From a virus (lineage: Duplodnaviria > Caudoviricetes): 58,266 bases of DNA. The position numbers and the translations under genes were made by a program. Positions 8,902 through 45,339 of the stretch are shown piece by piece. A model generated the notes under the pieces. That model was not told where the DNA came from and made no database searches. It saw only the letters and a list, made by a program, of their open reading frames with translations. How positions within the stretch are numbered: the first letter of the stretch is position 1; every line of letters starts with the position of its first letter. The DNA is taken from the IMG/VR virus record IMGVR_UViG_3300027782_002369, positions 1 through 58,266 of that record; one strand, 5' to 3'.

Positions 8902-10613
8902 TTATATTTCAAAAAGTCCGTTGGAAAAACTTTTTATCAACAGGACAAAATTTTACAGAGATTGATTTACAGAGGTCACCCAATACACTAATTATTGGTA
9001 ACAATGGTGCGGGTAAGTCCACCATTTTAGATGCCTTGTGTTTTGGACTCTTTGGTAAACCCTTTCGTAAGATTAACAAACCACAGTTATTAAACTCTAT
9101 CAATGCTCAAGCAGCCATTGTTGAAATTGAATTTGCTATTGGTAAAAAACAATACAAAGTTATTCGTGGTATTAAACCAAATACATTTGAAGTATATTGT
9201 AATGATAAGTTGGTTGACCAAGATGCCAAGGCAAAAGATTACCAAGAACATTTAGAGAAGTTTATTCTCAAATTAAATTTTAAATCCTTTACTCAAGTGG
9301 TTATATTAGGTTCGGCATCGTTTGTTCCATTTATGCAACTTACTCCTGCTGACCGAAGAGCAATCATTGAGGACTTATTAGATATTCAAATTTTCTCTTC
9401 CATGAATGGTGTGGTCAAAGAAAAGATGGCAATCATTAAAGATTCCACCACAAAAACCAAACATGAAATGGACTTGACATCCGAAAGAATTAATTTCCAA
9501 AAGCAAAGCATTGAGGAACATAAGAATCGGAATGATGAGGAAATTGAAAAGAAAAAGAAAGAGATTGCCACAAGTATAGACCAAACTTTTACTCTACAAA
9601 GAGATATAAGTTTAATTCAAAAACATATTGATGTTCTCCAGAAAAAGATAGAAGATAAACTTTCTGTGGAAAAGAAAAGTAAGAAGCTGTTACAGTTAGA
9701 ATCGAAGATTGAAACCAACATTAAAAAGAATGAAAAGGATATTGCTTTCTATGAAGAACACGACAACTGCCCAACCTGCAAACAAACCATCGAAGGAGAG
9801 TTTAAGCGAGAGCAAGTTGAAGAAAGAAAATCCAAAGTCACTACTCAACGGCAAGGCCTTGAGGAAATCTCTACACAGATTACTCAAGCAAACCAAAGAA
9901 TAGAACAAATACAAGATATCATTAAACACATTGGTGGCCACAATAATGAGATTGTTAAACACAACTCTACGATATCTGCCATTAACAAATATATTAATAA
10001 GATTCAAAGTGAAGTTGAAGAACTTGCCAATCGTAAAGATAATCTAGAAGAAGAAAATGCCAAACTTAAAGAGTTACGGGAAGAATTGGCCAAACTGATT
10101 GTGAAGCAAGAAGAACTATCATCAGAAAAACAATACTATGAGTTTGCCGGTTCTTTATTAAAAGATACTGGTATTAAAACCAAGATTATTCGTCAATACT
10201 TACCTATTATGAATAAGTTAATTAATAAGTATTTGACTGCAATGGACTTCTTTGTGAACTTCAATATCAATGAAAACTTTGAGGAAACAATTAAGAGTAG
10301 ACACCGTGATGAATTTGGTTATGCTAACTTTTCAGAAGGTGAAAAGATGCGTATTGACTTGGCACTACTGTTTACATGGCGACAGATTGCTAAGTTAAAG
10401 AATAGTACCAACACCAACCTATTAATTTTAGATGAAGTATTTGATTCTAGTTTAGATGGTGTAGGCACAGAGGAGTTTTTGAAGTTGATTCATGAAATGG
10501 GTTCTGATACAAATATTTTTGTTATCTCCCATAAAGGCGACCAACTGTTTGATAAGTTTAGGTCAATCATTAAATTTGAGAAAAAGAATAATTTTAGTCA
10601 GGTGGCAAAATGA
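8898..10613 (+). CDS. gp46: Recombination ATPase gp46 (Rad50/SbcC-like)
   Basis: GNNGAGKS, CPTC zinc hook, FSEGEKMRIDL signature, LILDEVFD. Confidence 0.97.
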   Translation: MIIFQKVRWKNFLSTGQNFTEIDLQRSPNTLIIGNNGAGKSTILDALCFGLFGKPFRKINKPQLLNSINAQAAIVEIEFAIGKKQYKVIRGIKPNTFEVYCNDKLVDQDAKAKDYQEHLEKFILKLNFKSFTQVVILGSASFVPFMQLTPADRRAIIEDLLDIQIFSSMNGVVKEKMAIIKDSTTKTKHEMDLTSERINFQKQSIEEHKNRNDEEIEKKKKEIATSIDQTFTLQRDISLIQKHIDVLQKKIEDKLSVEKKSKKLLQLESKIETNIKKNEKDIAFYEEHDNCPTCKQTIEGEFKREQVEERKSKVTTQRQGLEEISTQITQANQRIEQIQDIIKHIGGHNNEIVKHNSTISAINKYINKIQSEVEELANRKDNLEEENAKLKELREELAKLIVKQEELSSEKQYYEFAGSLLKDTGIKTKIIRQYLPIMNKLINKYLTAMDFFVNFNINENFEETIKSRHRDEFGYANFSEGEKMRIDLALLFTWRQIAKLKNSTNTNLLILDEVFDSSLDGVGTEEFLKLIHEMGSDTNIFVISHKGDQLFDKFRSIIKFEKKNNFSQVAK

Positions 10614-11173
10614 GTGAAGTCTTTACATATAACACGGAAGAAGTTGTTAAACAACCCACACCACAACAACAAACATTACCTTTAGTTGGCGAAAATAATC
10701 CAATTTTAAAAGAGGTAATGCCAGAGTTTGATTTTAAAAATCCACCAGTTAATCCTATGGCATTAGCCACAGTATTGGTAGAAACCTGTAAACTACACAA
10801 AGGTTATGGATTGTCCGCCAATCAATGTGGACTAAAACACAGAGTATTTGTAATGGGACATGGTGAAGAATATGTGGCATTTTTTAATCCCAAGATTACT
10901 TCCACAATTGGTGAATGCCACATGATTGAGGGTTGTTTATCTTTTCCACTTTTAGGATTAAGAATTACCAGACCTGAAACAATTGAGGTAGAATACCAAG
11001 ACTTCAATGGAGCTACCAGAACGGCAAAGTATAGTGGTATATCTGCTCGATGTTTTTTGCATGAGCTTGACCACCAAAATGGAATAGTGTATACTGATAA
11101 AGTAAAACCAATGGCATTACAATCTGGTATGAGTAAAAGAAACAAAATGATAAAGAAATTGAGAATTCGTTAA
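10610..11173 (+). CDS. def: Peptide deformylase
   Basis: GYGLSANQCG, EGCLS, HELDH. Confidence 0.95.
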   Translation: MSEVFTYNTEEVVKQPTPQQQTLPLVGENNPILKEVMPEFDFKNPPVNPMALATVLVETCKLHKGYGLSANQCGLKHRVFVMGHGEEYVAFFNPKITSTIGECHMIEGCLSFPLLGLRITRPETIEVEYQDFNGATRTAKYSGISARCFLHELDHQNGIVYTDKVKPMALQSGMSKRNKMIKKLRIR

Positions 11174-12438
11174 TGGCAACACCAATTGAATATGTAGATA
11201 AACAATGGAAAGATTGGTCTGAAAAGAATCCACCTTCCACATTCAAACACATTGATAAAGAACAACTGGTAAAAGTTCTTACTGAAGATTTAACTTATGC
11301 TTCTCAAATGGATGTCCGTGAATATACTCTGTACCAAAAATGGTGTGAAGTAAAAGAAAGATATCCTGTTCAAGAAGTATCTACATTGTTTGGCCAAGAA
11401 ACTCACATGGTTTATCCTGAACAAGAGAAACTTATTAAACAAGTTAAAAATAATTTCTGGATGCCAACTGAGCCGGATGATTATGAAAAATTAAAACCCG
11501 TTATGAAATTACATAATGGTGAATTGGCAGAAACATGGAATGCCATTCGTACTTTTTCTTCTACAATGAAGAACAACTCCAATATTGGTCGTAACTTATT
11601 CTATACGATTGAAGATGAGATTACCAATAAATACTTGGGTGTAATATGTATCTCATCAGACTTTCTGGACTTAACTCCTAGAGATAAAGCAATTGGATGG
11701 GATAGAGATGTTAAAACGCAACAAGGAATGATTAATCATACCGCAATTGGTTCCACTATCGTTCCATTACAACCACTCGGCTTTAATTACATGGGTGGTA
11801 AATTACTTGCTTTACTTTGTTTGGCTGATACAGTTCAAAAAGATTGGAAGGAAAGATATGGAGATGTCCTTGTTGGAGTTACAACTACTAGTCTTTATGG
11901 GAATACTAAGTCTGGTGGTCTTTCTCAGTATGATGGATTAGAACATTGGAATAAAATGGGTTTCTCAAGTGGTTCTGTGGCATTTGAACCTAGTAGAGCA
12001 ACCAAGAAAATGATTTTTGAGTGGTTAAAAGAAGAACACACTAAGAAATATTTTGAGTGGTGGGAAGCCAAGAATCTACAAGGTCTTCCGCTTAAGCGTG
12101 ACCATAAAAATCGTTCATTACATTTTGCATATCCAAAACTTGGTATACCAAAAGAATTAACAAGAACGGAACATCAACGTGGTATCTATTTTAGTCCACT
12201 CTATAATAATACCAATGAATATCTTTGTAAACAAATTACAGAAGATAAACTGGTAAAGTCATTTGATACCAGCGTAGAAGCATTATCTATTATTTGGAAA
12301 ACAAAGTATGCCAAAGGTAGAATTCGGCAATTACAAAAGAAAAACAATGTTTCATATGAAACTCTTTTCTATGACGATTTGATTTACCTGTCATGGGAAG
12401 ATACCAAAGCGAAATATTTACCACAAGTTGGTCGATAA
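11173..12438 (+). CDS. DUF4338/DruA-like protein, paralog 1
   Basis: IGRNL, TPRDKAIGW, IVPLQPLGFNYMGGKLLALL, TTTSLYG, SQYDG. Confidence 0.75.
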   Translation: MATPIEYVDKQWKDWSEKNPPSTFKHIDKEQLVKVLTEDLTYASQMDVREYTLYQKWCEVKERYPVQEVSTLFGQETHMVYPEQEKLIKQVKNNFWMPTEPDDYEKLKPVMKLHNGELAETWNAIRTFSSTMKNNSNIGRNLFYTIEDEITNKYLGVICISSDFLDLTPRDKAIGWDRDVKTQQGMINHTAIGSTIVPLQPLGFNYMGGKLLALLCLADTVQKDWKERYGDVLVGVTTTSLYGNTKSGGLSQYDGLEHWNKMGFSSGSVAFEPSRATKKMIFEWLKEEHTKKYFEWWEAKNLQGLPLKRDHKNRSLHFAYPKLGIPKELTRTEHQRGIYFSPLYNNTNEYLCKQITEDKLVKSFDTSVEALSIIWKTKYAKGRIRQLQKKNNVSYETLFYDDLIYLSWEDTKAKYLPQVGR

Positions 12439-12855: not shown

Positions 12856-13674
12856 ATGGAAATATCAATAAAAAAAGAAGATTTGCAAACAAAAAGTCTG
12901 TTTGTAGCAACGCCTATGTATGGTGGTATGAACCACGGTCTTTACATGAAAGCGTGTTTAGATTTACAAGGCCTCTGTATGCAGTATGGCATACAAGTAA
13001 AATTCTCATTTCTATTTAATGAGTCCCTAATTACACGAGCAAGAAATTATCTTGTCGATGAATATCTCCATCGTTCCGATTGCACTCATATGTTGTTTAT
13101 TGATTCGGACATCCACTTTAATCCGCAAGATGTGATTGCACTCTTGGCTATGGACAAAGAAGTTTCTGGTGGTCCTTATCCAAAGAAAGCAATTAAATGG
13201 AAGTCTGTTAAAACAGCAGTAACAAAAAATCCAGATATTGATCCTGGTATGCTTGAGAAAGTTACTGGTGATTATGTGTTTAATCCAGTTAAAGGCACGG
13301 CACAATTCTCTGTTACAGAACCTTTAGAAGTTATGGAAATTGGTACAGGCTTTATGATGATGAAGCGTGAAGTATTTACAAAATTAAAAGAAGCATTCCC
13401 AATGATTCGTTATAAACCTGACCATGTAGGACAGGCACACTTTGATGGTTCTCGTTACATTCATGCTTACTTTGATACAGTCATTGATACTGCTGATTCA
13501 ATTACTGGTGGTGGTTCTGACCGCTACCTATCAGAAGATTATATGTTCTGTCAGATGTGGCGTAAGATTGGTGGAAAAATTCACCTTTGTCCTTGGATGA
13601 AAACATCACACATTGGTACATATCACTTCCAAGGAGATATGCCAGCTGTTGCTAATTTTGTCGGAGAAATGTAA
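12856..13674 (+). CDS. GT-A fold glycosyltransferase-like protein
   Basis: LFVATPMYGG, SLITRARN, MLFIDSDI (DxD), IGTGFM, LSEDYMFC. Confidence 0.75.
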   Translation: MEISIKKEDLQTKSLFVATPMYGGMNHGLYMKACLDLQGLCMQYGIQVKFSFLFNESLITRARNYLVDEYLHRSDCTHMLFIDSDIHFNPQDVIALLAMDKEVSGGPYPKKAIKWKSVKTAVTKNPDIDPGMLEKVTGDYVFNPVKGTAQFSVTEPLEVMEIGTGFMMMKREVFTKLKEAFPMIRYKPDHVGQAHFDGSRYIHAYFDTVIDTADSITGGGSDRYLSEDYMFCQMWRKIGGKIHLCPWMKTSHIGTYHFQGDMPAVANFVGEM

Positions 13675-13675
13675 C

Positions 13676-14107
13676 ATGGCATGGCAAGATAGTAAGGGTA
13701 ATAAAGGTACTGATGACAATGTTAAATTGGTTTCAGAAGCACCTTATCATCCAGGTTATGAAGATGTTGGGTTTGACACTCTCGAACAAATCATTGGCCG
13801 TAAATTTGATGGTGGCAAATTAGAATATGGTTTGTTACCACCATTAGCACTAGAAGAAACTGTTAAGGTATTAACTTTTGGTGCTCAGAAGTATGAAAGA
13901 GATAATTGGCAAAAAGTACCGGATGCCAAACGTAGGTATTTCGATGCACTACAACGTCATGTGTGGTCATGGAAACAAGGGGAACAAATCGATCCCGAAT
14001 CTGGTATACATCACTTGGCACACGCAATGTGCTGCTTGATGTTTCTATATGAACATGATATAATGTATTCTTTAAATAATGGAGAAGTAAATGAAGCTGT
14101 CAAATGA
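13676..14107 (+). CDS. dATP/dGTP diphosphohydrolase-like protein (DUF5664)
   Basis: GRKFDGGK, VLTFGAQKYERDNW, ALQRH, DPESGIHHLAHA; ATG at 13676 preferred over 13613. Confidence 0.85.
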   Translation: MAWQDSKGNKGTDDNVKLVSEAPYHPGYEDVGFDTLEQIIGRKFDGGKLEYGLLPPLALEETVKVLTFGAQKYERDNWQKVPDAKRRYFDALQRHVWSWKQGEQIDPESGIHHLAHAMCCLMFLYEHDIMYSLNNGEVNEAVK

Positions 14108-19440: not shown

Positions 19441-19944
19441 ATGCAGCTAAGTATAGTTGGTTGTCCCGATAAAAAGCGTTTTAGACCGTTTGTGAAGCGT
19501 GCTGCTCAGTTTTATGCAAAAGAATTAATATCTGAAAAGATGTTGGAAAACATTTTTGTTCGTATAAAATTCAATAAAGACATACCCGCTTATGGTTATG
19601 CTTCAGTTGAAGATTATAATGATAGTGGTAAACCAAGAGAATTTGAAATTGAAATCCATTCGGGTATTAGCGGATATGATATTTTAAAAACCTTGGCACA
19701 TGAGATGGTTCATGTTAAGCAATATATCTATGGAGAAACCAACGAAAAATTAACTCGTTGGAAAGGTGAAAGAGTTGATTCTGATACGATTGATTATTGG
19801 GTTCAACCTTGGGAAATAGAAGCACACGGATATGAAGCTGGTTTATTTACCAAGTTTGCTATTAAAGAAAAACTTTGGGAAGTATTTAATGGTGTTAGTA
19901 ATCCAGATGCAGATATTATTCCTGAACCATTGGGTTGGAAATAG
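19441..19944 (+). CDS. Putative zinc metallopeptidase (HExxH)
   Basis: TLAHEMVHVKQ, QPWEIEA; AAGGAG RBS; CATAAATA late-like promoter at 19393-19400. Confidence 0.75.
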   Translation: MQLSIVGCPDKKRFRPFVKRAAQFYAKELISEKMLENIFVRIKFNKDIPAYGYASVEDYNDSGKPREFEIEIHSGISGYDILKTLAHEMVHVKQYIYGETNEKLTRWKGERVDSDTIDYWVQPWEIEAHGYEAGLFTKFAIKEKLWEVFNGVSNPDADIIPEPLGWK

Positions 19945-19966
19945 ATTATATAAGTAGTAAACATTT

Positions 19967-19992
19967 AACCCTAGTTTTTACTAGGGTTTTTT
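19967..19992 (+). terminator. Rho-independent terminator-like hairpin
   Basis: AACCCTAGT-TTTT-ACTAGGGTT-TTTT. Confidence 0.75.
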
Positions 19993-20009
19993 ATTTTAAG
20001 GAGAGTATT

Positions 20010-20177
20010 ATGAAAAAGAAAACATCTCCTCAGCCACGAAACTATCTTGTCAAATTGGCATTGTTTCGTAAAGCAGGAGTTCATCGTAAGAGTAACAAAG
20101 CAGTAAGGCGTTTAGAGAAGTCTAAAAAGAGTGGTTATAGTAAAGTGTATTTTGGTATATTTTACTATAACCATTGA
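20010..20177 (+). CDS. Small basic protein, candidate ArfA-like ribosome rescue factor
   Basis: AAGGAG RBS; MKKKTSPQPRNYLVKLALFRKAGVHRKSNKAVRRLEKSKK followed by a hydrophobic tail encoded by a 21-bp stem; function is inference. Confidence 0.6.
   Translation: MKKKTSPQPRNYLVKLALFRKAGVHRKSNKAVRRLEKSKKSGYSKVYFGIFYYNH
20130..20175 (+). other. 21-bp RNA hairpin (RNase III-like substrate) in the 3' end of the ORF
   Basis: AGTGGTTATAGTAAAGTGTAT-TTTG-GTATATTTTACTATAACCATT; fully paired with 4 G-U wobbles. Confidence 0.85.
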
Positions 20178-20202
20178 CAATAATGTATAAGTAGTATATA
20201 GT
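20174..20202 (+). promoter_or_regulatory. sigma70 promoter for the tRNA block
   Basis: TTGACA-N17-TATAGT; late-like TATAAGTA in the spacer. Confidence 0.75.
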
Positions 20203-20211
20203 ATTAAATAT

Positions 20212-20278
20212 GCGGTGTGTAATAGTACGGTGTGAGATACCCTCTTATATTATCTGAGCAAAGCAGACCACCGCTCCA
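20212..20278 (+). ncRNA. Minimal tRNA-Gly-like RNA (67 nt)
   Basis: Acceptor GCGGTG/CACCGC-T-CCA, 3-bp D arm, 9-bp anticodon-like arm, 4-bp T arm with non-canonical loop AGCAAAG. Confidence 0.65.
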
Positions 20279-20284
20279 AATTTT

Positions 20285-20358
20285 GCGGGATTAGTTTAAT
20301 GGTAAAACTAGAGGTTTCCAACCTCTCGTTATTGGTTCGATTCCAATATCCCGCTCCA
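20285..20358 (+). tRNA. tRNA-Gly(TCC)
   Basis: GCGGGAT/ATCCCGC-T-CCA, anticodon arm AGAGG-TT-TCC-AA-CCTCT, GGTTCGATT T loop. Confidence 0.96.
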
Positions 20359-20375
20359 TTATTAAAGGCACCAAT

Positions 20376-20531
20376 ATGACAGCAGAAATATTGCATATTT
20401 GCATAGTGTGTAATCATCTCCACGACAACGAAAAAGAAGGCGAATGGGAACAATTGCCTGAAGAATTTAAATGTCCAACCTGTGGTTGTAATAAAGATGA
20501 ATATCGTGACGAACTCTGGCACTCGGTTTAA
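20376..20531 (+). CDS. Rubredoxin (51 aa), not in ORF track
   Basis: HICIVCNH...WEQLPEEFKCPTCG: two CxxC motifs with the W-x-x-LP-x-x-F-x-CP-x-CG signature. Confidence 0.85.
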   Translation: MTAEILHICIVCNHLHDNEKEGEWEQLPEEFKCPTCGCNKDEYRDELWHSV

Positions 20532-20551
20532 TTTAATTACAATTATCTTAT

Positions 20552-21169
20552 ATGAATAATAATAATTGTTTTGAAAAGTTAAATCTACACCTATCAAACA
20601 ATCATCCAATTTGGGCTGAGCATTTAAATTATGATTACGGCCATGTTGATGTTCGTTTATACAGCGAAAAGAAAACTTTCCTTAGATACTCCTTACCTGA
20701 TGATTATTTTAAAGGCGAAGCTATCTACGAGGTAATGCAGCAATACAAATTAAAAGCTAAGATTTTTTTAATGGAACCTGGATATTTGTATAATTGGCAT
20801 CGTGATGCGTGGCGTAATATAGCATTTAATATGTTACTAACAGATGATCCAAATTATATTTTAGCATTTGCGCACACTTGTGGTCCAGATCAAATAATTG
20901 ATCCAAACGAATTTATGTACAGTCCTTTTACATCACTACGATATGAATCAAATACACTTTATTTGTTAAATTCACAAATTCCACATTTAGTTTTTAATTA
21001 TGGAACAGTTAATAGATATTTGTTAACGATTGCTCATTACGAATCTCAGCCAGTGCCATCTTATTTTCAAAAACCAGCTGATCAAACATCTTATGTAGCT
21101 ACTGTTACTGACTTAGACAGCAAAGGATTAATTGTAAATGCAAGTGGTGATTCTAACAACCAATACTGA
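20552..21169 (+). CDS. Putative Fe(II)/2OG-type dioxygenase (cupin/DSBH)
   Basis: FLMEPGYLYNWHRD (HxD) ... LLNSQIPHLVFN (distal H) ... RYLLTI. Confidence 0.6.
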   Translation: MNNNNCFEKLNLHLSNNHPIWAEHLNYDYGHVDVRLYSEKKTFLRYSLPDDYFKGEAIYEVMQQYKLKAKIFLMEPGYLYNWHRDAWRNIAFNMLLTDDPNYILAFAHTCGPDQIIDPNEFMYSPFTSLRYESNTLYLLNSQIPHLVFNYGTVNRYLLTIAHYESQPVPSYFQKPADQTSYVATVTDLDSKGLIVNASGDSNNQY

Positions 21170-22574
21170 TTCAGAAAGACAAGTTAGATATTTGGGTCCT
21201 TATCAAATTGCTTGGTGGTTAAGAACCAATGGATTTTCTACACAGGTGTTAGATTTTTTATACTTTATGACCAAAGAAGAAAGATTATGTCTTTTTAAAA
21301 AATTTATAACACACGAAACTAAAGTTGTAGGTTATGCTCCTTTTTGTATTCTAAATAGTCAACAACGCTTAGAAAAAAGTGAACAACCAATATTTGATAT
21401 TCTTTTTGAGATTAAAGAAAACTTTCCTTGGGTTAAAATAGTTACCGGAGGACAATGGGTTCAAAATTTCTTAAAATATGAACATAAAAAAATTAATTTT
21501 AAACTAGATGGTATTTTTACGGGAGAAGCCGAACAATCATTTTTAGAATATTGTAACCACATTTTTAAAGGCACACCTGCTCCTACTTTTACGTTAGGCC
21601 CCGGCCTTAACAAAATTTATAGTACTACTACCGTATATAATATTCAATCATGTAACATGATATTTGCAGAAAATGATTTTATTTTGCCAGGCGAATCTTT
21701 ACCCTTAGAATTTAGTCGGGGCTGTATTTTTAAATGTAAGTTCTGTCAGTATCCACATATTGGAAAAGACAAAGATGATTTTAACAAAGATATGGAAAAT
21801 ATTAGAGATTCTTTAATTTCTAATTATGAAAAGTTTGGTACTGTTAATTATCACATAACAGATGATACATTAAATTCACACCGAGAGCGAACTAAACAAT
21901 TTTATTTAATGGTAAAAGAATTGCCTTTTAAAATTGAATTTGTTGGCTATGTTAGAATGGATTTAATTAGTATATGGCCGGAACAATTAGAAATATTACC
22001 AGAATCCGGTCTAATAAGCTGCCATTTTGGAATTGAATCGTTTGACCCATTATCTTGCAAAATAATTGGAAAAGGTTGGGGAGCTAAAAATCATAAGCCT
22101 TTTTTGACATATATAGGAAAAGAATGGGGTGATGATGTTATTGTACGAACATCGATGATTGCGGGTTTAGGAAAAGAAACAGAAAAAGATTGGAAAGAAG
22201 CAAACGAATGGTTTCTTGCGTCTAAAGTACATGATTGGTTTTGGAATCCACTGGATTTATTTCCTAAATTAGGTCTAAGTGAATTTGAAAAGAATCCAGA
22301 AAAATATGGTTATCGTTTTAATAGTAATAATGACGAATGGGAAACCGATTATACGACAAAACAACAAGCAAGAGAATGGTGTAAAAAACAATGGAGTGAA
22401 ACTCGGTCAGTTAGAATACCGTCCGCTTGGGATTATTCATCTTTAAGAAATTTAGGATTTAGTAAAGATTATTTGTTAAAAACGAATTACAAAGATTCAT
22501 ATAATGATAGAGTAAGTATGAACCTAAGTAATAAAATGGTTCAATCTTATTATAAAATGGCAATGGAATATTAG
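21138..22574 (+). CDS. B12-binding-type radical SAM protein
   Basis: LGPYQIA/KIVTGG N-terminal domain; LEFSRGCIFKCKFC (CxxxCxxC); ITDDTLN; HFGIES; MIAGLGKET. Confidence 0.88.
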   Translation: MQVVILTTNTDSERQVRYLGPYQIAWWLRTNGFSTQVLDFLYFMTKEERLCLFKKFITHETKVVGYAPFCILNSQQRLEKSEQPIFDILFEIKENFPWVKIVTGGQWVQNFLKYEHKKINFKLDGIFTGEAEQSFLEYCNHIFKGTPAPTFTLGPGLNKIYSTTTVYNIQSCNMIFAENDFILPGESLPLEFSRGCIFKCKFCQYPHIGKDKDDFNKDMENIRDSLISNYEKFGTVNYHITDDTLNSHRERTKQFYLMVKELPFKIEFVGYVRMDLISIWPEQLEILPESGLISCHFGIESFDPLSCKIIGKGWGAKNHKPFLTYIGKEWGDDVIVRTSMIAGLGKETEKDWKEANEWFLASKVHDWFWNPLDLFPKLGLSEFEKNPEKYGYRFNSNNDEWETDYTTKQQAREWCKKQWSETRSVRIPSAWDYSSLRNLGFSKDYLLKTNYKDSYNDRVSMNLSNKMVQSYYKMAMEY

Positions 22575-22580
22575 TAATAT

Positions 22581-22655
22581 AGCGGGGTAGCTCAGAGGTA
22601 GAGCATTGGACTCATAATCCAGGGGCCGTAGGTTCGATTCCTTCCCCCGCAACCA
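22581..22655 (+). tRNA. tRNA-Met(CAT), initiator-like acceptor stem
   Basis: AGCGGGG/CCCCGCA-A-CCA with 1:72 mismatch; CT-CAT-AA loop; GGTTCGATT. Confidence 0.9.
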
Positions 22656-22671
22656 ACTTTAAGGAGATAAT

Positions 22672-22812
22672 ATGTCAGATGATAAAAAATTCCGTGAAGA
22701 ACAACTACAAAAAGTTCGCAATTTAAAAACAGTAGGTCCTGCTCCTAAAATAAACAAACCAAAATTTGTTCCTAAGATGACTGTTCAACGAAAGGCTGGT
22801 AGAGGAAGATGA
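22672..22812 (+). CDS. Small basic protein (46 aa), not in ORF track
   Basis: AAGGAG RBS; MSDDKKFREEQLQKV...VQRKAGRGR. Confidence 0.7.
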   Translation: MSDDKKFREEQLQKVRNLKTVGPAPKINKPKFVPKMTVQRKAGRGR

Positions 22813-22940
22813 CCGAAAAAGAACATGATCCGGTTGAAGAGCAGGATTCAAAGAATGAAGATGATGAGTTCCAGCGTATAGAACGGGAACAAGAGCAAAA
22901 AGAAAAATATAAACAACCTAGTGCGGCCATTTGGCCATAG
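22809..22940 (+). CDS. Small acidic protein (43 aa), not in ORF track
   Basis: ATGA-coupled; MTEKEHDPVEEQDSKNEDDEFQRIE...AAIWP. Confidence 0.55.
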   Translation: MTEKEHDPVEEQDSKNEDDEFQRIEREQEQKEKYKQPSAAIWP

Positions 22941-22941
22941 G

Positions 22942-23031
22942 TTATTTAAATTTGGCCAAACATTCCAAAGCGGCCAGTAGTAAAGAACCTACTACAACAA
23001 ATGTGAATATAATAATTGGTAATTTATTCAT
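22942..23031 (-). CDS. Small single-TM peptide (29 aa)
   Basis: MNKLPIIIFTFVVVGSLLLAALECLAKFK; GAGG RBS on the minus strand. Confidence 0.6.
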   Translation of the reverse strand: MNKLPIIIFTFVVVGSLLLAALECLAKFK

Positions 23032-23046
23032 AATAACCTCAATTAA

Positions 23047-23133
23047 TTAACGTGTGAATGCTCCCGATTCTACTATCATCAGAACTACACACAAAAGTAA
23101 GACACCAATAAAAATTAATGGTTGCTCTCTCAT
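23047..23133 (-). CDS. Small single-TM peptide (28 aa)
   Basis: MREQPLIFIGVLLLCVVLMIVESGAFTR; ATGA overlap with the upstream minus-strand gene. Confidence 0.6.
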   Translation of the reverse strand: MREQPLIFIGVLLLCVVLMIVESGAFTR

Positions 23134-23570
23134 TTATACAATTTAAAGAAATACGTCACTAGAGCAGCTGCCGTCATACACCACCAAAATACTTGCATTT
23201 GTTTTTGACGGTCAACATCCATTAATTTTTCTTCTGCAGAACGCTCTCTTTCCATTTTTGATTTTAGAGCTTCAATTTCACCCCAAGCATTCTTACCGTA
23301 TTTAGAAATTGCTTGTTTTTTAATGTTTTCTACTTCTTTTTCGTGAGCTTTATTTTTCTCATATTTCTCAAAAGCTCTGAATTCAGCCATAGAATCCATG
23401 TAGTCTTTTCGAGCTTTAGCTACCATTCTTTGGCGGTGTTGTTCACGCACAGCAGCTTCCATATCCGCTTGTTGGTCGGACACCACACCACCTAATTGTT
23501 TACCTACATTTTGAGCACCCTTTAATGTACTCACGGCGCCTTGAGCACCAGTAATAATTGGATCAGACAT
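23130..23570 (-). CDS. Coiled-coil protein with C-terminal TM anchor
   Basis: 146 aa, charged helical body, VFWWCMTAAALVTYFF tail; no competing + strand gene. Confidence 0.8.
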   Translation of the reverse strand: MSDPIITGAQGAVSTLKGAQNVGKQLGGVVSDQQADMEAAVREQHRQRMVAKARKDYMDSMAEFRAFEKYEKNKAHEKEVENIKKQAISKYGKNAWGEIEALKSKMERERSAEEKLMDVDRQKQMQVFWWCMTAAALVTYFFKLYK

Positions 23571-28965: not shown

Positions 28966-30304
28966 TGAGGACTATCTAAGAAAAGTTTTACCATTTATTA
29001 AACCAGATTATTTCTCGGACAGAACCGAGAGGACTATTTTTAATGAAATTACATCATTCACGGAATCTTACAATAATCCGCCATCGATTGAAGCGATTGG
29101 AATTGCCATCAAAGAGAGGAACACTCTCACGGATGACGAAGTTAAGAACTGTGAAACTTATCTCCAAGAAATTGAGGCTAATCGCACAGCAGAAGCCGAG
29201 ATTCAATGGCTTGTTGACAAGACCGAAAAGTTCTGCCAAGAGAAGGCGATATACAATGGTGTATTACGGGCTATTTCAATTCTCGATGGTAAGGACAAAA
29301 GCCATGACAAAGGTGCAATTCCCACTATATTATCGGACGCTTTGGCCGTCAGTTTCGATACAACCGTAGGTCATGATTACTTAGAGAACTCTGATGAACG
29401 ATATGAATTTTACCACAGAAAAGAAGAACGTATTCCATTCGATTTGGAATGCTTCAACAAGATTACTAAAGGTGGCCTTCCTACTAAAACTCTTAATATT
29501 GCTTTGGCTGGAACTGGTGTTGGTAAGAGTTTATTCATGTGTCATGTCGCTGCGGGCGCCATGGTTCAAGGCAAGAATGTATTGTATATCACATTGGAGA
29601 TGGCAGAAGAAAAGATTGCAGAACGAATTGATGCGAATCTTCTCAATGTAACTTTAGATGACCTCATTGATTTACCAAAAGATATGTATGACAAGAAGGT
29701 TGCTCGTGTCCGTGAGAAATGTACTGGCAAACTTATCATCAAAGAATATCCAACCGCTTCGGCTTCCGTAACACACTTTAGGACATTATTAAATGAACTT
29801 AATCTTAAACGTAGTTTTGTACCCGATATTATCTTTGTTGATTATCTTAACATATGTTGCTCTTCTCGTATTAAAGCCGGTGCAAATATTAATTCCTATA
29901 CCTATGTTAAATCGATTGCAGAAGAACTTAGAGGTCTTGCGGTTGAGCATAATGTACCTGTGGTTTCTGCCACGCAGACTACTCGCTCAGGATTTACAAG
30001 TAGCGATCCAGGTCTTGAGGACACCAGTGAATCATTCGGACTCCCAGCCACCGCAGACTTAATGTTTGCTTTGATTTCTTCTGAAGATTTGGAAGAAATG
30101 GGACAGATTATGGTGAAGCAATTAAAGAATCGTTATAACGACCCAACTTATTATAAAAGATTTACAGTTGGTGTTGATAGATCCAAGATGAAACTATATG
30201 ATGTAGAACAATCTGCTCAACAAGGTCTTGCTGATGCTGGCCATGTAGGTGCTCATAATAAAATTAAACATGAAAAGAAATCATTTGAAGGCTTTAAAGT
30301 ATGA
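28925..30304 (+). CDS. gp41: Replicative helicase gp41
   Basis: LAGTGVGKS, ITLEMAEE, FVDYLNI, SATQTTR, SESFGLPATAD, KQLKNRY. Confidence 0.97.
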   Translation: MKLEQAILKNLVYNEDYLRKVLPFIKPDYFSDRTERTIFNEITSFTESYNNPPSIEAIGIAIKERNTLTDDEVKNCETYLQEIEANRTAEAEIQWLVDKTEKFCQEKAIYNGVLRAISILDGKDKSHDKGAIPTILSDALAVSFDTTVGHDYLENSDERYEFYHRKEERIPFDLECFNKITKGGLPTKTLNIALAGTGVGKSLFMCHVAAGAMVQGKNVLYITLEMAEEKIAERIDANLLNVTLDDLIDLPKDMYDKKVARVREKCTGKLIIKEYPTASASVTHFRTLLNELNLKRSFVPDIIFVDYLNICCSSRIKAGANINSYTYVKSIAEELRGLAVEHNVPVVSATQTTRSGFTSSDPGLEDTSESFGLPATADLMFALISSEDLEEMGQIMVKQLKNRYNDPTYYKRFTVGVDRSKMKLYDVEQSAQQGLADAGHVGAHNKIKHEKKSFEGFKV

Positions 30305-30867
30305 AAAAAATAAAAAAAGTTACATACCATTATGATGATGGTACAAATGAAACTTTTGATGTGAATAATAATTTCAAAAAAACAGAATTTCGTTCTGGAA
30401 TAACATATGAGCAAGTAAAAGAATTGTTTGAATATGATAAATTAAATGGTGGTCTAATATGGAAAAAAGCCAATAAAAATTTGATTGGAAAAAAAGCAGG
30501 TAGTCAAGAAAAAGAACATGGTTATAATCGAGTTTGTATAAACGGAAAAACCTACAGAGAACACCATGTGGTTTGGTTATGGCATTACGGAGAATTACCA
30601 AATTGTATCTTAGACCACATCAACCAAAAAAGAGATGATAATAGGATTGAAAATCTCAGAAAAAGTGATGCCTCTTCAAATAATGTAAATCGTGGTATAA
30701 TGAAAAATAACACCTCAGGATATACTGGTGTAAAATTTGTGGGCAAAAAATGGTTTGCCGAAATTACTAGAAATAAAAAAACTATACGTCTAGGTAATTT
30801 TATTACAAAAGAAGAGGCTATAATAGCAAGAAAAACCGCTGAGAAAAAATATGATGCAATTAACTAG
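30301..30867 (+). mobile_element. Free-standing HNH homing endonuclease with AP2 domain
   Basis: LDHINQKRDDNRIENLR (HNH); NNTSGYTGV..KKWFAEI..LGNF..EEAIIAR (AP2); overlaps both neighbours. Confidence 0.9.
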
Positions 30868-31963
30868 AGACCAAGCACTTCATTGTGCCAAAGTATTTGA
30901 TGATTACTTTAGTAATATTGGAAGTACCGAAGAATACATGCGTGATGAGAAGCTAAAGAATGTGGCTAATATGCCATCTTCTTTGTTTCCTATTGAAGAT
31001 GATTTGTTCTCTGATTTCTCCATGCACCCAAATGACATGGATATTCAAGTATGTGAAATACCAAATGAAACTTGGGAATCATTACTTGCCATTACCAGTT
31101 CCCACATTAATAAATCTCCAGTTGGTAAAAATATACAATTGGCAGTTATGGAAAAGAACTCAGGAAAGATTCTAGGATTCATTCGTTTAGGCTCACCAGT
31201 CATCTATATGAAACCCCGTAATGACTACCTAGGACAAGTTTGGATTCAACAGGAAGATACTGCCAAACGATTCAATGCTTCTTGTGCCATGGGTTTCGTA
31301 ATTGTACCATCTCAGCCATTTGGATTTAACTATCTTGGTGGTAAACTTCTATCTGCTATTTGTACCAGCCACGAAGTAAGAGAAATCTGTAATAAGAAAT
31401 ATGGTATGAATCTTTGCCTATTTGAGACCACCAGTTTGTATGGTACAACAAAGAACGTATCACAATATGATGGTATGAAACCCTATATTCGTTTTAAAGG
31501 TTTGACTGAATCGGATATTGTACCCATGATGCACGGTCAAAGATACCATGATTTGAAGAACTATGTGGAGAATATTACTGGAGATTTGTTGGCAGGTGAT
31601 ACATCGACCACCAGTAGAAAGTTAAGAACATTTACCAAGATTATTGCCTTAACAAAAGCCGCATTAAAAGGAACAACCGAAGGTAATGCTTTCAACATAA
31701 CGATTGAGAACGCTAAAAAGTTGACAGAAAAGAAAAGATATTATATTTCTGATTATGGATTTAAGAATACAGTAGATTATATGAACTGTAAAACTGACAC
31801 TCTTTTACCTGGTGAAAATTACGATAAACATAAGTTAAGTAATATCATCGACTGGTGGCGGAGTAAAGCTATAAATAGATATGAAACCCTTAGATCAGAG
31901 GGTAGATTAAGAACAGAATTAGAAATCTGGACTTCAGGCAAAGACATTCAAATCATAAGATAA
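30851..31963 (+). CDS. DUF4338/DruA-like protein, paralog 2
   Basis: PVGKNI, LGFIRLGSP, KPRNDYLG, IVPSQPFGFNYLGGKLLSAI, ETTSLYG, SQYDG. Confidence 0.75.
   Translation: MMQLTRDQALHCAKVFDDYFSNIGSTEEYMRDEKLKNVANMPSSLFPIEDDLFSDFSMHPNDMDIQVCEIPNETWESLLAITSSHINKSPVGKNIQLAVMEKNSGKILGFIRLGSPVIYMKPRNDYLGQVWIQQEDTAKRFNASCAMGFVIVPSQPFGFNYLGGKLLSAICTSHEVREICNKKYGMNLCLFETTSLYGTTKNVSQYDGMKPYIRFKGLTESDIVPMMHGQRYHDLKNYVENITGDLLAGDTSTTSRKLRTFTKIIALTKAALKGTTEGNAFNITIENAKKLTEKKRYYISDYGFKNTVDYMNCKTDTLLPGENYDKHKLSNIIDWWRSKAINRYETLRSEGRLRTELEIWTSGKDIQIIR
31870..31877 (+). promoter_or_regulatory. Late promoter TATAAATA
   Basis: Exact match about 90 nt upstream of the 31967 ORF. Confidence 0.6.
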
Positions 31964-33872: not shown

Positions 33873-34469
33873 ATGAAATTTTATAATGATGTGAGAAACA
33901 AAATTGGTCCTCTTAGACAACGTGGTTTTGATTATATTTTTGAATATTTAAAAACTATAAAAAATCCATTAATTGTGGAAACTGGTTGTGCCAGAGAAGA
34001 AAATAATTATGAAGGTGATGGCCAAAGTAGTTTACTTTTTGACCAATACACTAAAGAATATGGTGGCCAATTTTACACCGTAGATATTTCAAAAGAAAGT
34101 GTTAAATATTGTCGTAGTAAAATGATTAATGAAAAAAGTTCGGTTAACTTAGGTGATAGTATTCTATATCTAAAAGAACTTAATAAATGGTTATTATCAA
34201 AAAATGAAAAAATTGATTTTTTATATCTCGATAGTTTTGATGCCCCTAAAAATGATCCAGATACAGTTTTAACTAGTGCTCTACATCATTTATATGAGTT
34301 TACTACAATACTACCTTCATTAAAACCAGGATGTTTAATTGGTGTTGATGATTGTTGGCCATCGGGAGATTCAATTTCAGGCAAAGGCACATTTGTTGCC
34401 GAATATATGAATAAAATCAACATTAAGCCTTCTCTTGTATTTCACCAAACATTCTGGAAATTATTATGA
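33873..34469 (+). CDS. Class I SAM-dependent methyltransferase
   Basis: IVETGCAR, YTVDI, IDFLYLDS, LIGVDD, GKG. Confidence 0.8.
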   Translation: MKFYNDVRNKIGPLRQRGFDYIFEYLKTIKNPLIVETGCAREENNYEGDGQSSLLFDQYTKEYGGQFYTVDISKESVKYCRSKMINEKSSVNLGDSILYLKELNKWLLSKNEKIDFLYLDSFDAPKNDPDTVLTSALHHLYEFTTILPSLKPGCLIGVDDCWPSGDSISGKGTFVAEYMNKINIKPSLVFHQTFWKLL

Positions 34470-35224
34470 CTGCAACTGTGATTATACCAACTACTGGTTC
34501 GCCAGAAGTTATTGAAGCTATTAAATCTGTATTAGACCAAACATATGACACCAAGTGTTATATTGTATGTGATGGTCCTGATTTTAGTTATACTGTGAAG
34601 AATATGTTGAGGTGGGTTGAGAAACATCCAAATTATCGTAGAATAAAACTCTGTAATCTTCCAATCAATGTCGGTGCCAATGGATTTTATGGCCACCGTG
34701 TCTACGCAGCATTCACACACCTTGTTGATACCGAATATGTATTATATCTTGACCAAGATAATTGGTTGAAACCTAATCATGTTGAATCTTGTATCAATAC
34801 AATCAAATCAAAAAATCTTGACTGGTGTTACTCACTAAGAGATATCTATAAAAAAGATGGTACACTTATTTGCCACGATGATTGTGAATCGTTAGGTAAA
34901 TGGCAAACTTACCATGGAGTTAATCATGTTGACACCAATTCATATTGCCTTAAAACAGAAATTGGTGTAAAATTGGCTAGCGTTTGGCATGGTGGTTGGG
35001 GACAAGATAGAGTGTTTCTGGCAACTATTGCTCAACACTTCAATAAATTCGATTGCACAGGTGAATACACCGTGAACTATCGTGTTGATGGCGGTAAAGG
35101 TTCAGTCAATGCTGAATTCTTTATCAATGGAAATGCAGTAATGAATAAAAAATATAATGGAGTTTTCCCATGGCAAAAAATCTCATCATCGGTGGGTTCA
35201 CAAACTATAACGCTAACCAGTTAA
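34466..35224 (+). CDS. Glycosyltransferase family 2
   Basis: TVIIPT, AIKSVLDQTY, IVCDG, LYLDQDN. Confidence 0.9.
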   Translation: MTATVIIPTTGSPEVIEAIKSVLDQTYDTKCYIVCDGPDFSYTVKNMLRWVEKHPNYRRIKLCNLPINVGANGFYGHRVYAAFTHLVDTEYVLYLDQDNWLKPNHVESCINTIKSKNLDWCYSLRDIYKKDGTLICHDDCESLGKWQTYHGVNHVDTNSYCLKTEIGVKLASVWHGGWGQDRVFLATIAQHFNKFDCTGEYTVNYRVDGGKGSVNAEFFINGNAVMNKKYNGVFPWQKISSSVGSQTITLTS

Positions 35225-36006
35225 AACCTTGGGTATTATCTGCCAAGGTGCATGCGGGTGATGACAATGATGTTGTTTTAGTTTATGGTAACGCATCTAA
35301 TGAAACACTAGATTGGTTAGAAACACAAGGTGTCATTATTGTTCCTATGTTAGAGATTCAAAATGTACCAATTCATGTGTTACGATTCCTATCAATACAT
35401 AATTATCTGGTACAACATTGGCAAAAATATGACTATGTTATTACAACAGATGTCAAAGATGTTTACTTCCAAACAGACCCATTCAAATTCCTTGTTAATC
35501 GTAAACTTATTATTGCTTCAGAAGGTTTAAAATATAAAGATGAACCTTGGGGTAATGAAAACTTATATCAAGCTTATGGTCAATATGTCTATGAAGAATT
35601 TAAGAATAGTGAAATTTTTAATGTTGGAACATTCGGTGGTACTGCAGAATATGTAAAAGATATGGTGTTTCATATCTTCACCAACGGCATCAACCGACCA
35701 ATTCCTATTTGCGACCAAGCTGTATTCAATGTATTACTCAATACACAGCCATTTAAAGATATTGCAACTAAAACAATCCAATGGGCTGCTGAATTGGGTA
35801 CTATCATGGATCCATCAAAGATTGCCAGCTTCAGACCTAATCTGCTCTTTGCTGAGCCCGTATGGGAAAATGGTTTACTGAAAGATGTCAATGGTCATAT
35901 TTTCCCTATTGTACATCAATATGACCGAGTGCCAGAATTGAAAGCGTTTGTCCAAAAGAAATTTGGTCAAGAAGATCCGGCAGAATACTTTACCTATAGA
36001 GTTTAA
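35170..36006 (+). CDS. Glycosyltransferase-like protein (GT-A)
   Basis: VITTDVKDVYFQ, NVGTFGG, DQAVFN, IVHQYDR. Confidence 0.75.
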   Translation: MAKNLIIGGFTNYNANQLKPWVLSAKVHAGDDNDVVLVYGNASNETLDWLETQGVIIVPMLEIQNVPIHVLRFLSIHNYLVQHWQKYDYVITTDVKDVYFQTDPFKFLVNRKLIIASEGLKYKDEPWGNENLYQAYGQYVYEEFKNSEIFNVGTFGGTAEYVKDMVFHIFTNGINRPIPICDQAVFNVLLNTQPFKDIATKTIQWAAELGTIMDPSKIASFRPNLLFAEPVWENGLLKDVNGHIFPIVHQYDRVPELKAFVQKKFGQEDPAEYFTYRV

Positions 36007-36007
36007 T

Positions 36008-36814
36008 ATGAATGAAATTAGCATTGTAACGGCCTTCTTTGATATTGGTCGTGGTGATTGGACTCCACAGAAAGGTCTACCACACTATCTACAACGAACA
36101 ACAGATACTTATTTTGACCGTTTTGCCAATATGGCTAAACTTGATAATACTATTATTGTATATACATCAGAAGATTTGGCTGATAAAGTTTGGAATATTC
36201 GAAAAGATAAAGAATCTAAAACTGTTGTTTGTGTAGTAGATTTCGAAAAAGAATTTGATGAGTATAGAGATTCAATTCGTAAGATTCAAAACAATCCAGA
36301 CTATCTCGCAAAGATTAATCCAAGTCAAATTAAGAATCCAGAATATTGGTCAGCTGACTATGTTCTGGTCAATCTATTGAAATCTCATTTTGTGAATCAT
36401 GCAATCGGTTCTGGTACTGCTGATACCGATTTGGTTGCTTGGTTGGATTTTGGTTATTGCCGTGAACCTTCTACATTGAATGGTGTAACCTTGTGGCAGT
36501 ATCCATTTGATAAAGAAAAGATTCATTTCTTTAATATCAAAGAATATAATGGAACAAGTTTAACTGATATCATTGCAAACAACGATGTTCATGTTACAGG
36601 TCCAATGATTGTTGCAAGTCAAAAGATGTGGCCTAAACTTGAAGAATTAGTTGATAAAAGTTTTAGAGAATTAATTAAAAATGACTTAATTGATGATGAC
36701 CAAACTTTATTGTTGATGTCATATCTACAACAACCAGAATCTTTTGAACTACATCCAATTTTACCTAATGATTGGTTTATTGCTTTTAAGGAATACAATG
36801 AGAATATATCTTAG
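36008..36814 (+). CDS. HtrL/YibB (WlaTC)-family glycosyltransferase
   Basis: IVTAFFDIGRGDW, NPEYW, AWLDFGYCR, DDDQTLL; ATG 36008. Confidence 0.85.
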   Translation: MNEISIVTAFFDIGRGDWTPQKGLPHYLQRTTDTYFDRFANMAKLDNTIIVYTSEDLADKVWNIRKDKESKTVVCVVDFEKEFDEYRDSIRKIQNNPDYLAKINPSQIKNPEYWSADYVLVNLLKSHFVNHAIGSGTADTDLVAWLDFGYCREPSTLNGVTLWQYPFDKEKIHFFNIKEYNGTSLTDIIANNDVHVTGPMIVASQKMWPKLEELVDKSFRELIKNDLIDDDQTLLLMSYLQQPESFELHPILPNDWFIAFKEYNENIS

Positions 36815-37547
36815 TGGAACTGCCAACCTTGGCGACTTTTTAAATGGTTTACCAGTAATGTCCGGTATTAGTAAGACTTATGGTAAATTTGAATTAACAA
36901 TTAAAAAAGAAATGCGTAAGTTTAAAGGCATTAAAGAATTCTTAATGTATCAGGACTTATTTACTGATGTTTCATTTGATGATGAAGTGTTCATGTATGG
37001 TGATATCATTAAAATGAGTTCTTGGCCAATTCGTGAAGATAAAAATGATCGATATAGACCAACTGAAACTTGTCGTTATGAAAATTATATGAAAGATAAT
37101 TATACAATGGAGTTTGATGTTGATGATGATTTCACAGTAGAAACTCCAGAATATGATATTGATGTGAAAGATACATATTATGTTGGTGATAGATGGGCGG
37201 TAGGTGATATTGATGACCGTAGAGAAACTCATATACTATCACATTTAAAAGATTATGAGTTTATTGATTATGATAGACCAATGTTGGAAAATGCTTACAT
37301 TCTCAAAAATCTAAAGAAACCTTTTATTACAAATTTTACTGGTATTGGTATGTTGGCTGACCTGTGTGATATTCCTTTATATTGTGTATGGAAGGCAGAA
37401 GATTGGAAACCAGAATTTAGAGTTGGTGATAACGATGTATCATGGGACAATGGTAAGAATATTCAACAAGTGTTTGAGAAACATTTTTATCAAGGCGCAC
37501 TTGCAGAATTGGTACACGCAAAAGATTTAGAAAGATATTTAAAATGA
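36798..37547 (+). CDS. GT9/heptosyltransferase-like protein (divergent)
   Basis: NLGDFLNGLP; FITNFTGIGMLADL; ATG 36798. Confidence 0.55.
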   Translation: MRIYLSGTANLGDFLNGLPVMSGISKTYGKFELTIKKEMRKFKGIKEFLMYQDLFTDVSFDDEVFMYGDIIKMSSWPIREDKNDRYRPTETCRYENYMKDNYTMEFDVDDDFTVETPEYDIDVKDTYYVGDRWAVGDIDDRRETHILSHLKDYEFIDYDRPMLENAYILKNLKKPFITNFTGIGMLADLCDIPLYCVWKAEDWKPEFRVGDNDVSWDNGKNIQQVFEKHFYQGALAELVHAKDLERYLK

Positions 37548-45217: not shown

Positions 45218-45287
45218 AGCCAACAATTCGTTGACTATGTATCTAAGCCAATCTTTCTATGGTTATGACCAGAAAGGTTGGATGTTG

Positions 45288-45295
45288 TATAAATA
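45288..45295 (+). promoter_or_regulatory. Late promoter TATAAATA
   Basis: Exact match heading the internal-protein block. Confidence 0.85.
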
Positions 45296-45339
45296 AGGAA
45301 CTGGCAACCAAAGTGTGTTGCAATCTGAAGGGAAAAATA

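Follow-up and report, generated by a model that had tools for sequence, protein, structure and literature searches.

Phage transfer RNA (tRNA) genes have usually been read as codon supplements and, more lately, as replacements for tRNAs that are cut by host defences. Here, we describe a 67-nucleotide (nt) tRNA-Gly-like RNA gene, the mini-tRNA, in the IMG/VR virus record IMGVR_UViG_3300027782_002369, of which the whole stretch of 58,266 bases was analysed and is called the window below (completeness rating approximately 35%, G+C 34.8%). The window is assigned to a T4-like myovirus by its gp23 major capsid protein and scaffold protein. It also encodes gp45, gp44, gp62, regA, UvsX, the gp41 helicase and a gp43-type DNA polymerase that matches phrog_262 with 1037.9 bits, and the closest deposited phages are Synechococcus myoviruses with a polymerase identity of approximately 50%. 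The mini-tRNA sits in the variable tRNA island from regA to gene 43, which in relatives holds 1 to approximately 19 tRNA genes, and is almost certainly a real, maintained and separately transcribed RNA derived from tRNA-Gly. Its parts and immediate surroundings, in window positions, are as follows.

20130–20175, plus strand: perfect stem-loop of 21 base pairs (bp) that abuts and overlaps the -35 hexamer (-24 kcal/mol, z = -8.3, 0 of 200 shuffles as stable)
20174–20202, plus strand: sigma-70-type promoter TTGACA-17-TATAGT, dedicated to the mini-tRNA (11 of 12 positions; best of 17 sites in 19500–23200)
20210–20211, plus strand: conserved A(-2)U(-1) before G1
20212–20278, plus strand: mini tRNA-Gly-like RNA of class 1, 67 nt, with encoded CCA (from fold and comparative alignment)
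20212–20217 with 20269–20274, plus strand: acceptor stem, 6 bp, plus a U7·C mismatch
20219–20228, plus strand: D hairpin, 3-bp stem, loop AUAG
20229–20251, plus strand: anticodon-like arm, 9 bp including four G·U pairs, loop UACCC at 20238–20242
20240–20241, plus strand: C35 and C36
20253–20267, plus strand: T arm, 4-bp stem, loop AGCAAAG at 20257–20263
20275, plus strand: U73, followed by CCA at 20276–20278
20285–20358, plus strand: canonical tRNA-Gly(UCC), its CCA likewise encoded, starting 6 nt after the mini-tRNA (ARAGORN; RF00005 68.6 bits; loop UUUCCAA)

A sequence-only reading made earlier had named the main features of this element, and all of them are present: the length of 67 nt, the acceptor letters (G1-C72, C2-G71 and G3-C70), U73, the encoded CCA, the short D arm, the 9-bp arm and the T loop. 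It had also placed the element directly behind a sigma-70 promoter, and the TTGACA-17-TATAGT site indeed ends 9 nt ahead of G1. A41 is the only nucleotide at the site of the variable loop, and the cloverleaf is the minimum-free-energy structure of the 67-nt element; judged from this one sequence, the fold is weak (z = -1.55, with 17 of 200 shuffles folding equally well). The same reading expected tRNA scanners to miss the element, which they do. ARAGORN calls only the tRNA-Gly(UCC) at 20285–20358 and a tRNA-Met at 22581–22655, and the mini-tRNA remains uncalled in the mitochondrial modes and at lowered thresholds (-ps90 to -ps70). The Rfam model RF00005 does not match the mini-tRNA in a 301-nt slice at the gathering threshold or at E<=10, and among the 4227 models of Rfam 15 the only overlap with 20212–20278 is an SraB row of 11.7 bits (E = 5.9) that spans 20152–20335. 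Near and distant BLAST searches with the mini-tRNA region against 50,697 deposited phage genomes gave no nucleotide similarity except a match to the canonical tRNA-Gly, and neither of the two RNA classes described below matched these genomes at E<=1. Full-text literature searches found no published description of the mini-tRNA, although the supplementary tables of a 2023 survey of 10,006 candidate structured RNAs from IMG/VR may list the motif; each tRNA-like candidate that the survey names coincides at least in part with a tRNA called by ARAGORN (Tyr, Asp, Cys or Arg; PMC10690425).

Related loci were gathered independently of the mini-tRNA sequence, through the 167-amino-acid (aa) gene upstream of it, which gave 80 loci with protein identities of 53–96%. 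The sequence-only reading had proposed a covariance model from related phages as a check; built from 17 copies and applied to the 80 anchored loci, such a model finds the mini-tRNA in 46 of them, and a regular expression run over the stored loci added L012/L013 and L027. The model also finds a copy in 22 of 27 long related records, and a second form of the RNA, class 2, occurs in three further records (L035 and L043 by the covariance model, L222 by the class-2 pattern). Across IMG/VR, the 5' pattern of class 1, the window's type, is present in at least 119 stretches and the class-2 pattern in 53. Class 1 is 66–68 nt long with covariance scores of 75–95 bits. Class 2 is 70 nt long, scores 24–41 bits and has a 5-bp T stem, a T loop of UGCGAAU or UGCAAAU, the D loop AUAGA and the anticodon-like loop UGUCCAA. 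Rarer variants (L060, L077, L027 and L176) fold to the common plan, and one class-1 variant found in six loci (L088:4706-4772) has three successive U·U oppositions in the middle of the long stem, with its ends and loop intact. At three loci the two classes stand head to tail, class 2 before class 1, at a distance of 6–8 nt (L138:2254-2397, L146:5916-6058 and L158:5901-6045), and their presence in one phage implies two non-redundant paralogues. When 185,579 species genomes were scanned for the 18-mer at the 5' end of class 1, 61 matches came up, none of them with the T-loop motif or the 3' end, and they are attributed to chance; an exact-pattern scan of this kind cannot show absence from hosts. 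The anchor gene itself (window 19441–19944) belongs to phrog_10499, a family of unknown function, and has an HExxH-type motif, HEMVHVKQ among its conserved peptide patterns and more than 571 relatives in IMG/VR.

The structure is conserved in both classes. In an alignment of 61 distinct class-1 copies, 95.4% of the pair cells are paired, against 30.8–59.6% with slid partners. Changes on both sides are seen in 14 of the 23 pairs (154 cells), and the covariation score is 0.381, compared with 0.149 in shuffled alignments, with 0 of 500 shuffles attaining the observed values. Acceptor pair 5 changes from U-A to A-U in eight class-1 copies and D-stem pair 3 from A-U to G-C in 24, while eight of the nine anticodon-stem pairs and three of the four T-stem pairs covary. 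Class 2, aligned from 21 distinct copies, is of lower diversity; it is also 95.4% paired, shows double changes in five pairs and has the cloverleaf as its minimum-free-energy fold (z = -3.2). The acceptor of class 1 consists of 6 bp followed by a mismatch at pair 7 in 50 of 61 copies, and that of class 2 of seven layers with a C6·C mismatch. The RNA has in common with canonical tRNA a cloverleaf of four helices, a discriminator base and CCA. Absence of conserved structure in relatives, as in a simple decayed duplicate, was the outcome that the sequence-only reading had named as fatal to its proposal, and the relatives show the opposite, with compensatory change in all four helices. In practical terms, the mini-tRNA shows that conserved RNA genes which escape both tRNA scanners and Rfam lie in the tRNA islands of uncultured phages.

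The signals upstream of the RNA are conserved as well. Among 123 distinct sequence contexts, to which all context counts here refer, a TTGAC-N17-21-TAnnnT site ending 5–12 nt upstream of G1 is found in 84, and its spacer varies in sequence. The AU at -2/-1 is kept in 121 of 123 contexts, behind promoters and behind other tRNAs alike. RNase P prefers U(-1), and the conserved dinucleotide fits processing by this enzyme; the AU is probably a leader of 0–3 nt that RNase P would cut off. Two lake-water metatranscriptomes contain contigs identical to parts of genes near the mini-tRNA (Hsp20 and the 167-aa gene), with no cover at 20042–20509, a gap that spans the mini-tRNA and the canonical tRNA-Gly alike and is uninformative either way. 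The stem-loop in front of the promoter recalls the PeSL of T4-like phages, which are composite terminator/early-promoter stem-loop cassettes (PMC4122927). In the window a strong stem-loop is likewise joined straight to an early-type promoter in a variable region, and among relatives the cassette and its RNA gene occur at differing genomic positions. PeSL are described as recombination points between protein genes (PMC4122927), whereas the cassette in the window drives a small RNA gene. Just upstream lies a lysine/arginine-rich open reading frame (ORF; window 20010–20177) of 55 aa; it has a good Shine-Dalgarno sequence, and the 21-bp stem-loop falls within its 3' end. Homologues of this ORF, which has no Pfam or PHROG family, precede the mini-tRNA in 24 of 123 contexts.

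The sequence-only reading placed the element in tandem with a canonical tRNA-Gly. This holds in the window but not as a general rule, given that a canonical tRNA-Gly lies within 15 nt of the mini-tRNA in 31 of 123 contexts and not in the other 92. In the window, the canonical tRNA-Gly is probably co-transcribed with the mini-tRNA, and a canonical phage tRNA-Gly(UCC) is the likely evolutionary source of the smaller RNA. Complete genomes carry the mini-tRNA together with tRNA-Gly(GCC) and tRNA-Gly(UCC) (G013), with tRNA-Gly(UCC) (G016) or approximately 75 kb from the tRNA genes, of which there are 34 in all and 33 clustered (G019). Another genome, 82% complete, has only three tRNAs plus class 2 (G007). 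Taken together, the genome and context evidence indicates that the mini-tRNA does not replace tRNA-Gly and is not linked to it either. The downstream partner is inconstant too: 28 of 123 contexts have a tRNA-Gly there and 27 of 123 a rubredoxin-like ORF at a distance of up to 1.5 kb, while many have a small basic ORF and further kinds occur. Between tRNA-Gly and tRNA-Met, the window itself encodes a rubredoxin-like 51-aa ORF, a 205-aa ORF without a family and a 478-aa radical-SAM protein (20376–22574). The radical-SAM gene was considered as a partner and rejected, since the window is the sole context out of 123 in which it comes after the mini-tRNA.

The letters that do not vary point to glycine. 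Invariant in both classes are G1-C72, C2-G71, G3-C70, G4-C69, U73 and CCA, the D loop AUAG, and G55 and C56 of the T loop. C35 and C36 are present in 82 of 82 copies (61/61 class 1, 21/21 class 2), and position 34 of class 1 is A in 45 copies, U in 13 and G in 1, so that the possible anticodons are ACC, UCC and GCC, all of them for glycine. According to PMC9976931, the bacterial glycine identity set consists of U73, G1-C72, C2-G71, C35 and C36. The acceptor letters that the sequence-only reading had taken for identity elements of bacterial glycyl-tRNA synthetase (GlyRS) do not vary although the stems around them drift, and the set of PMC9976931 is fully present in all 61 class-1 and 21 class-2 distinct copies. 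This match is the main reason to infer that GlyRS would charge the RNA, and we regard glycine charging, as judged from these letters, as somewhat more probable than its absence.

Decoding tRNAs have a near-universal U33 and a purine at position 37, and a canonical tRNA has a 7-nt anticodon loop, a variable loop of at least 4 nt and a T loop with U54-U55-C56. The mini-tRNA departs from this pattern. G55 replaces U55 in 82 of 82 copies, the T-loop letters being UGC in 26 and AGC in 56 of them. At position 33, 10 of 61 class-1 copies have a letter other than U, and all class-2 copies (21/21) have G; C stands at position 37 in 59 of 61 class-1 copies, and every copy has a 3-bp D stem and no more than one nucleotide where the variable loop would be. 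Positions 32 and 38 covary as a pair in class 1 (A-U in 51 copies, G-C in 9); we give this pair little weight for the reason stated below. An argument from the T stem about EF-Tu was dropped, since the canonical phage tRNA-Gly itself has A49-U65, U50-A64 and U51-A63, and the T stem hence does not separate it from the mini-tRNA. In length, the anticodon-like stem of 8–9 bp comes close to the D stem and anticodon stem of a tRNA stacked on each other, and on this geometry the long stem could preserve the distance from the CCA to the CC of the loop.

We propose the following course for this RNA. The gene would encode a small stable RNA that was derived from a phage tRNA-Gly(UCC) and then miniaturised, with the short D hairpin and the 8–9-bp anticodon-like stem replacing the stack of D stem and anticodon stem, the variable loop lost and G55 placed in the T loop. 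Host RNA polymerase would transcribe it from its own early-type promoter, trimming would probably be tRNA-like, with RNase P cutting at the AU|G junction and the 3' CCA already encoded, and host GlyRS would charge it with glycine. Its use in decoding would be absent or poor, and it would act in trans as a non-proteogenic Gly-tRNA, either as a decoy for, or a sink of, host factors directed against tRNA-Gly or Gly-tRNA-Gly, or as a glycine donor to a phage enzyme. Possible decoy targets include the Gly-tRNA-acetylating GNAT toxins, for which U73 and G71 are identity elements (PMC9976931), and tRNA-cleaving defences are also possible targets. A retron study followed up as a tRNA-Gly lead was set aside, given that tRNA-Gly is only a test substrate there. 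The sequence-only reading had suggested a non-ribosomal glycyl donor or a decoy, and this gains from the kept structure, the invariant identity letters, G55, the non-U33 letters, C37 and the missing variable loop. As a whole, the reading of a glycine-charged RNA that is not used for decoding and serves as decoy or donor stands, on these sequence features, at an even balance.

Several observations weigh against it. The invariance of GCGG...CCGCUCCA is partly forced, as the collection patterns, the regular expression and the model all contained those letters, and only the 80 loci anchored on the 167-aa gene were gathered independently of them; the invariance of C35 and C36 is free of this bias. 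GlyRS of some bacteria also reads core positions, in T. thermophilus G10, U16 and C50-G64 (PMC9976931), and these are absent or altered in the mini-tRNA. The canonical phage tRNA-Gly also has a Watson-Crick pair at 32-38 (U32-A38), and hence a small loop alone cannot exclude decoding. Finally, FemAB (PF02388), Acetyltransf_6 (PF13480) and Leu_Phe_trans were each found in 0 of 5 genomes, four of them complete, although the host could supply a Fem-type transferase.

The mini-tRNA could instead be a decoding tRNA-Gly, remodelled to resist a host tRNA-cleaving defence and sustaining the translation of glycine codons when the host and canonical phage tRNA-Gly are cut. Phage tRNAs with altered anticodon loops that evade tRNA-targeting defences have been described (PMC10264068, PMC11555353), all anticodons seen here are glycine anticodons, and the RNA is retained in phages with only three other tRNAs. 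In class 2, the stack of acceptor and T stems has 12 layers as in tRNA, and the loop UGUCCAA differs from the canonical phage loop UUUCCAA only at position 33. That sole difference, U to G, is nevertheless found in every class-2 copy (21/21), and in class 1 the prevalent letters are C37 (59/61) and A34 (45/61), the stack is one layer short with a mismatch, and RF00005 gives no match at E<=10. With the variable loop and G18G19 missing, a D stem of 3 bp and G55 for U55 besides, we regard a decoding role as unlikely.

A different possibility is an uncharged structural mimic, which could be a processing and stability module that gives RNase P and RNase E entry to the transcripts behind it, a cis leader through which a tRNA-binding protein controls an ORF approximately 20 nt after the CCA, or a sponge for proteins that bind the tRNA shape and the CCA tail. 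The AU before G1 suits such a role, as do the stem-loop and promoter cassette on which the RNA rides at several genomic positions and the ORF with a Shine-Dalgarno sequence that many relatives have 15–26 nt after the CCA of class-1 or class-2 copies. This ORF (P0001 type) is small and very basic, 53–75 aa long with the motif NPMLTKNGKPRLGPLN (for example L028:3647-3853); it is seen in this position in dozens of related loci, has no PHROG family and is not in the window. A pure processing signal needs neither an invariant C35 and C36 on top of a freely covarying 9-bp stem nor invariant base pairs 2–4 and U73, and with a downstream partner that is not constant the uncharged mimic appears improbable. 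What remains is a functionless, decaying tandem duplicate of tRNA-Gly, to which the distance of 6 nt from the canonical gene, the acceptor ends in common and the weak single-sequence fold in the window might point. The compensatory changes in four helices over 61 and 21 distinct copies exclude such a duplicate for practical purposes, and the conserved promoter, the 92 contexts away from tRNA-Gly and the two classes kept side by side add to this, so that we give it next to no credence.

If the glycine-charged, non-decoding RNA serves as a donor, a phage enzyme should use it, and the sequence-only reading suggested testing co-occurrence with DUF4338 and GNAT-fold genes. A 421-aa protein (window 11173–12438) matches PF14236 (DruA), which we take to be the family formerly named DUF4338, and a second PF14236 / phrog_19197 paralogue is found at 30851–31963. 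All 27 related records carry PF14236, most of them twice, and two of these records (G011 and G012) lack the mini-tRNA. Hence the test could be run but does not discriminate, and co-occurrence says nothing. It is odd in its own right that a T4-like clade should have a defence-system domain, DruA, among its core genes; a literature look-up for DruA matched only the word Druantia. The AlphaFold model of the DUF4338-like protein (pLDDT 95, pTM 0.92) has a GNAT fold at residues approximately 103–365, and in VIA-align all 50 matches shown are of GNAT type. The best is Mom of phage Mu (Z = 9.9, root-mean-square deviation 4.0 over 173 residues), which ties within 1 Z unit with ordinary acetyltransferases (others Z = 9.4–7.8). 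No Fem or L/F transferase is among the 50 matches shown, which does not exclude them. Foldseek gave no match to the model at E<=0.001 (E>=0.02), and a PDB sequence search with the protein gave none. Among 49 ORFs of the window, which cover most of those with at least 90 aa, Pfam searches found no other aminoacyl-tRNA-using enzyme. The mini-tRNA gene lies at most 600 nt behind a PF14236 gene in 10 of 123 contexts, all class 1 (for example G019 and G021), and in the window the two are 8 kb apart; we treat this adjacency as a lead only. A dedicated, ribosome-excluded glycyl carrier that is loaded by GlyRS and whose glycine is used outside translation by a phage enzyme, with the DUF4338/DruA-like protein as the modelled candidate, is thus conceivable but very unlikely. 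A pathway of this kind, an aminoacyl-tRNA-dependent modification served by a private tRNA, would, if true, be the first in a virus.

Other parts of the window have features of their own. A long run of sugar and polysaccharide biosynthesis genes at 33873–48338, unusually large for a phage, contains glycosyltransferases, HtrL_YibB, GDP-mannose-dehydratase-like epimerases, a DegT aminotransferase, a C-methyltransferase, a hexapeptide transferase, a cytidylyltransferase and a DUF6267 protein, which had no match in a PDB sequence search. Among the replication genes are a PF18909 protein (dATP/dGTP diphosphohydrolase family N-terminal domain; 13613–14107) and a peptide deformylase (10610–11173). At 30301–30867, flanked by the gp41-type helicase gene on one side and the second DruA-like gene on the other, an HNH endonuclease ORF probably represents the insertion of a homing endonuclease.

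Compared with canonical tRNA and the phage tRNA-Gly(UCC), the mini-tRNA has in common the four-helix cloverleaf, the acceptor GCGG...CCGC-U-CCA, C35 and C36, a 7-nt T loop with C56 (and A58 in class 2) and the location in the tRNA island from regA to gene 43. It differs in failing the tRNA model and ARAGORN, in lacking a variable loop, and in its short D arm, G55, frequent non-U33 and, in class 1, C37. T4 species 1 and 2 (rnaC/rnaD) are reportedly also stable RNAs other than tRNAs among tRNA genes, with tRNA-like 3' ends and unknown function; they are about twice as long as the mini-tRNA and are not known to have an amino-acid identity set. The defence-evading phage tRNAs resemble it in being phage-encoded, in lying in a tRNA island and in having an anticodon loop altered from that of the standard isoacceptor, whereas they are, as far as they are described, otherwise normal, decoding and detected by scanners (PMC10264068, PMC11555353). 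The mini-tRNA, in contrast, has a remodelled body and loop letters that speak against decoding.

By analogy, we would class the mini-tRNA among the non-canonical tRNAs of non-proteogenic (NP) type. The staphylococcal NP1–NP3 tRNAGly are glycine donors for FmhB, FemA and FemB; they have TGC or TGT for TTC and bind EF-Tu and the ribosome poorly, and they are still charged by GlyRS (PMC7826273). As described there, they too are extra tRNA-Gly species beside the decoding ones, with the GlyRS identity letters kept, G for U at position 55, a D loop without the usual G18G19 and a UCC-type anticodon region. Their cloverleaf, in contrast, is of full size, with a variable loop and with U33 in a 7-nt loop, and they are chromosomal, restricted to staphylococci and have known Fem partners (PMC7826273). 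The phage RNA is 66–70 nt long, has no variable loop and belongs to uncultured T4-like phages of lake water. The mini-tRNA is a widespread phage RNA missed by standard annotation, and it looks built for recognition by one synthetase while avoiding the decoding machinery. Short enough for synthesis, it may hold the full GlyRS identity set in a minimal RNA, which makes the recognition rules of bacterial GlyRS directly testable. If charged, it would point to a host attack directed at glycine tRNA that needs buffering or to a glycine-using phage enzyme, and the non-proteogenic tRNAGly of staphylococci would have their first counterpart in a virus.

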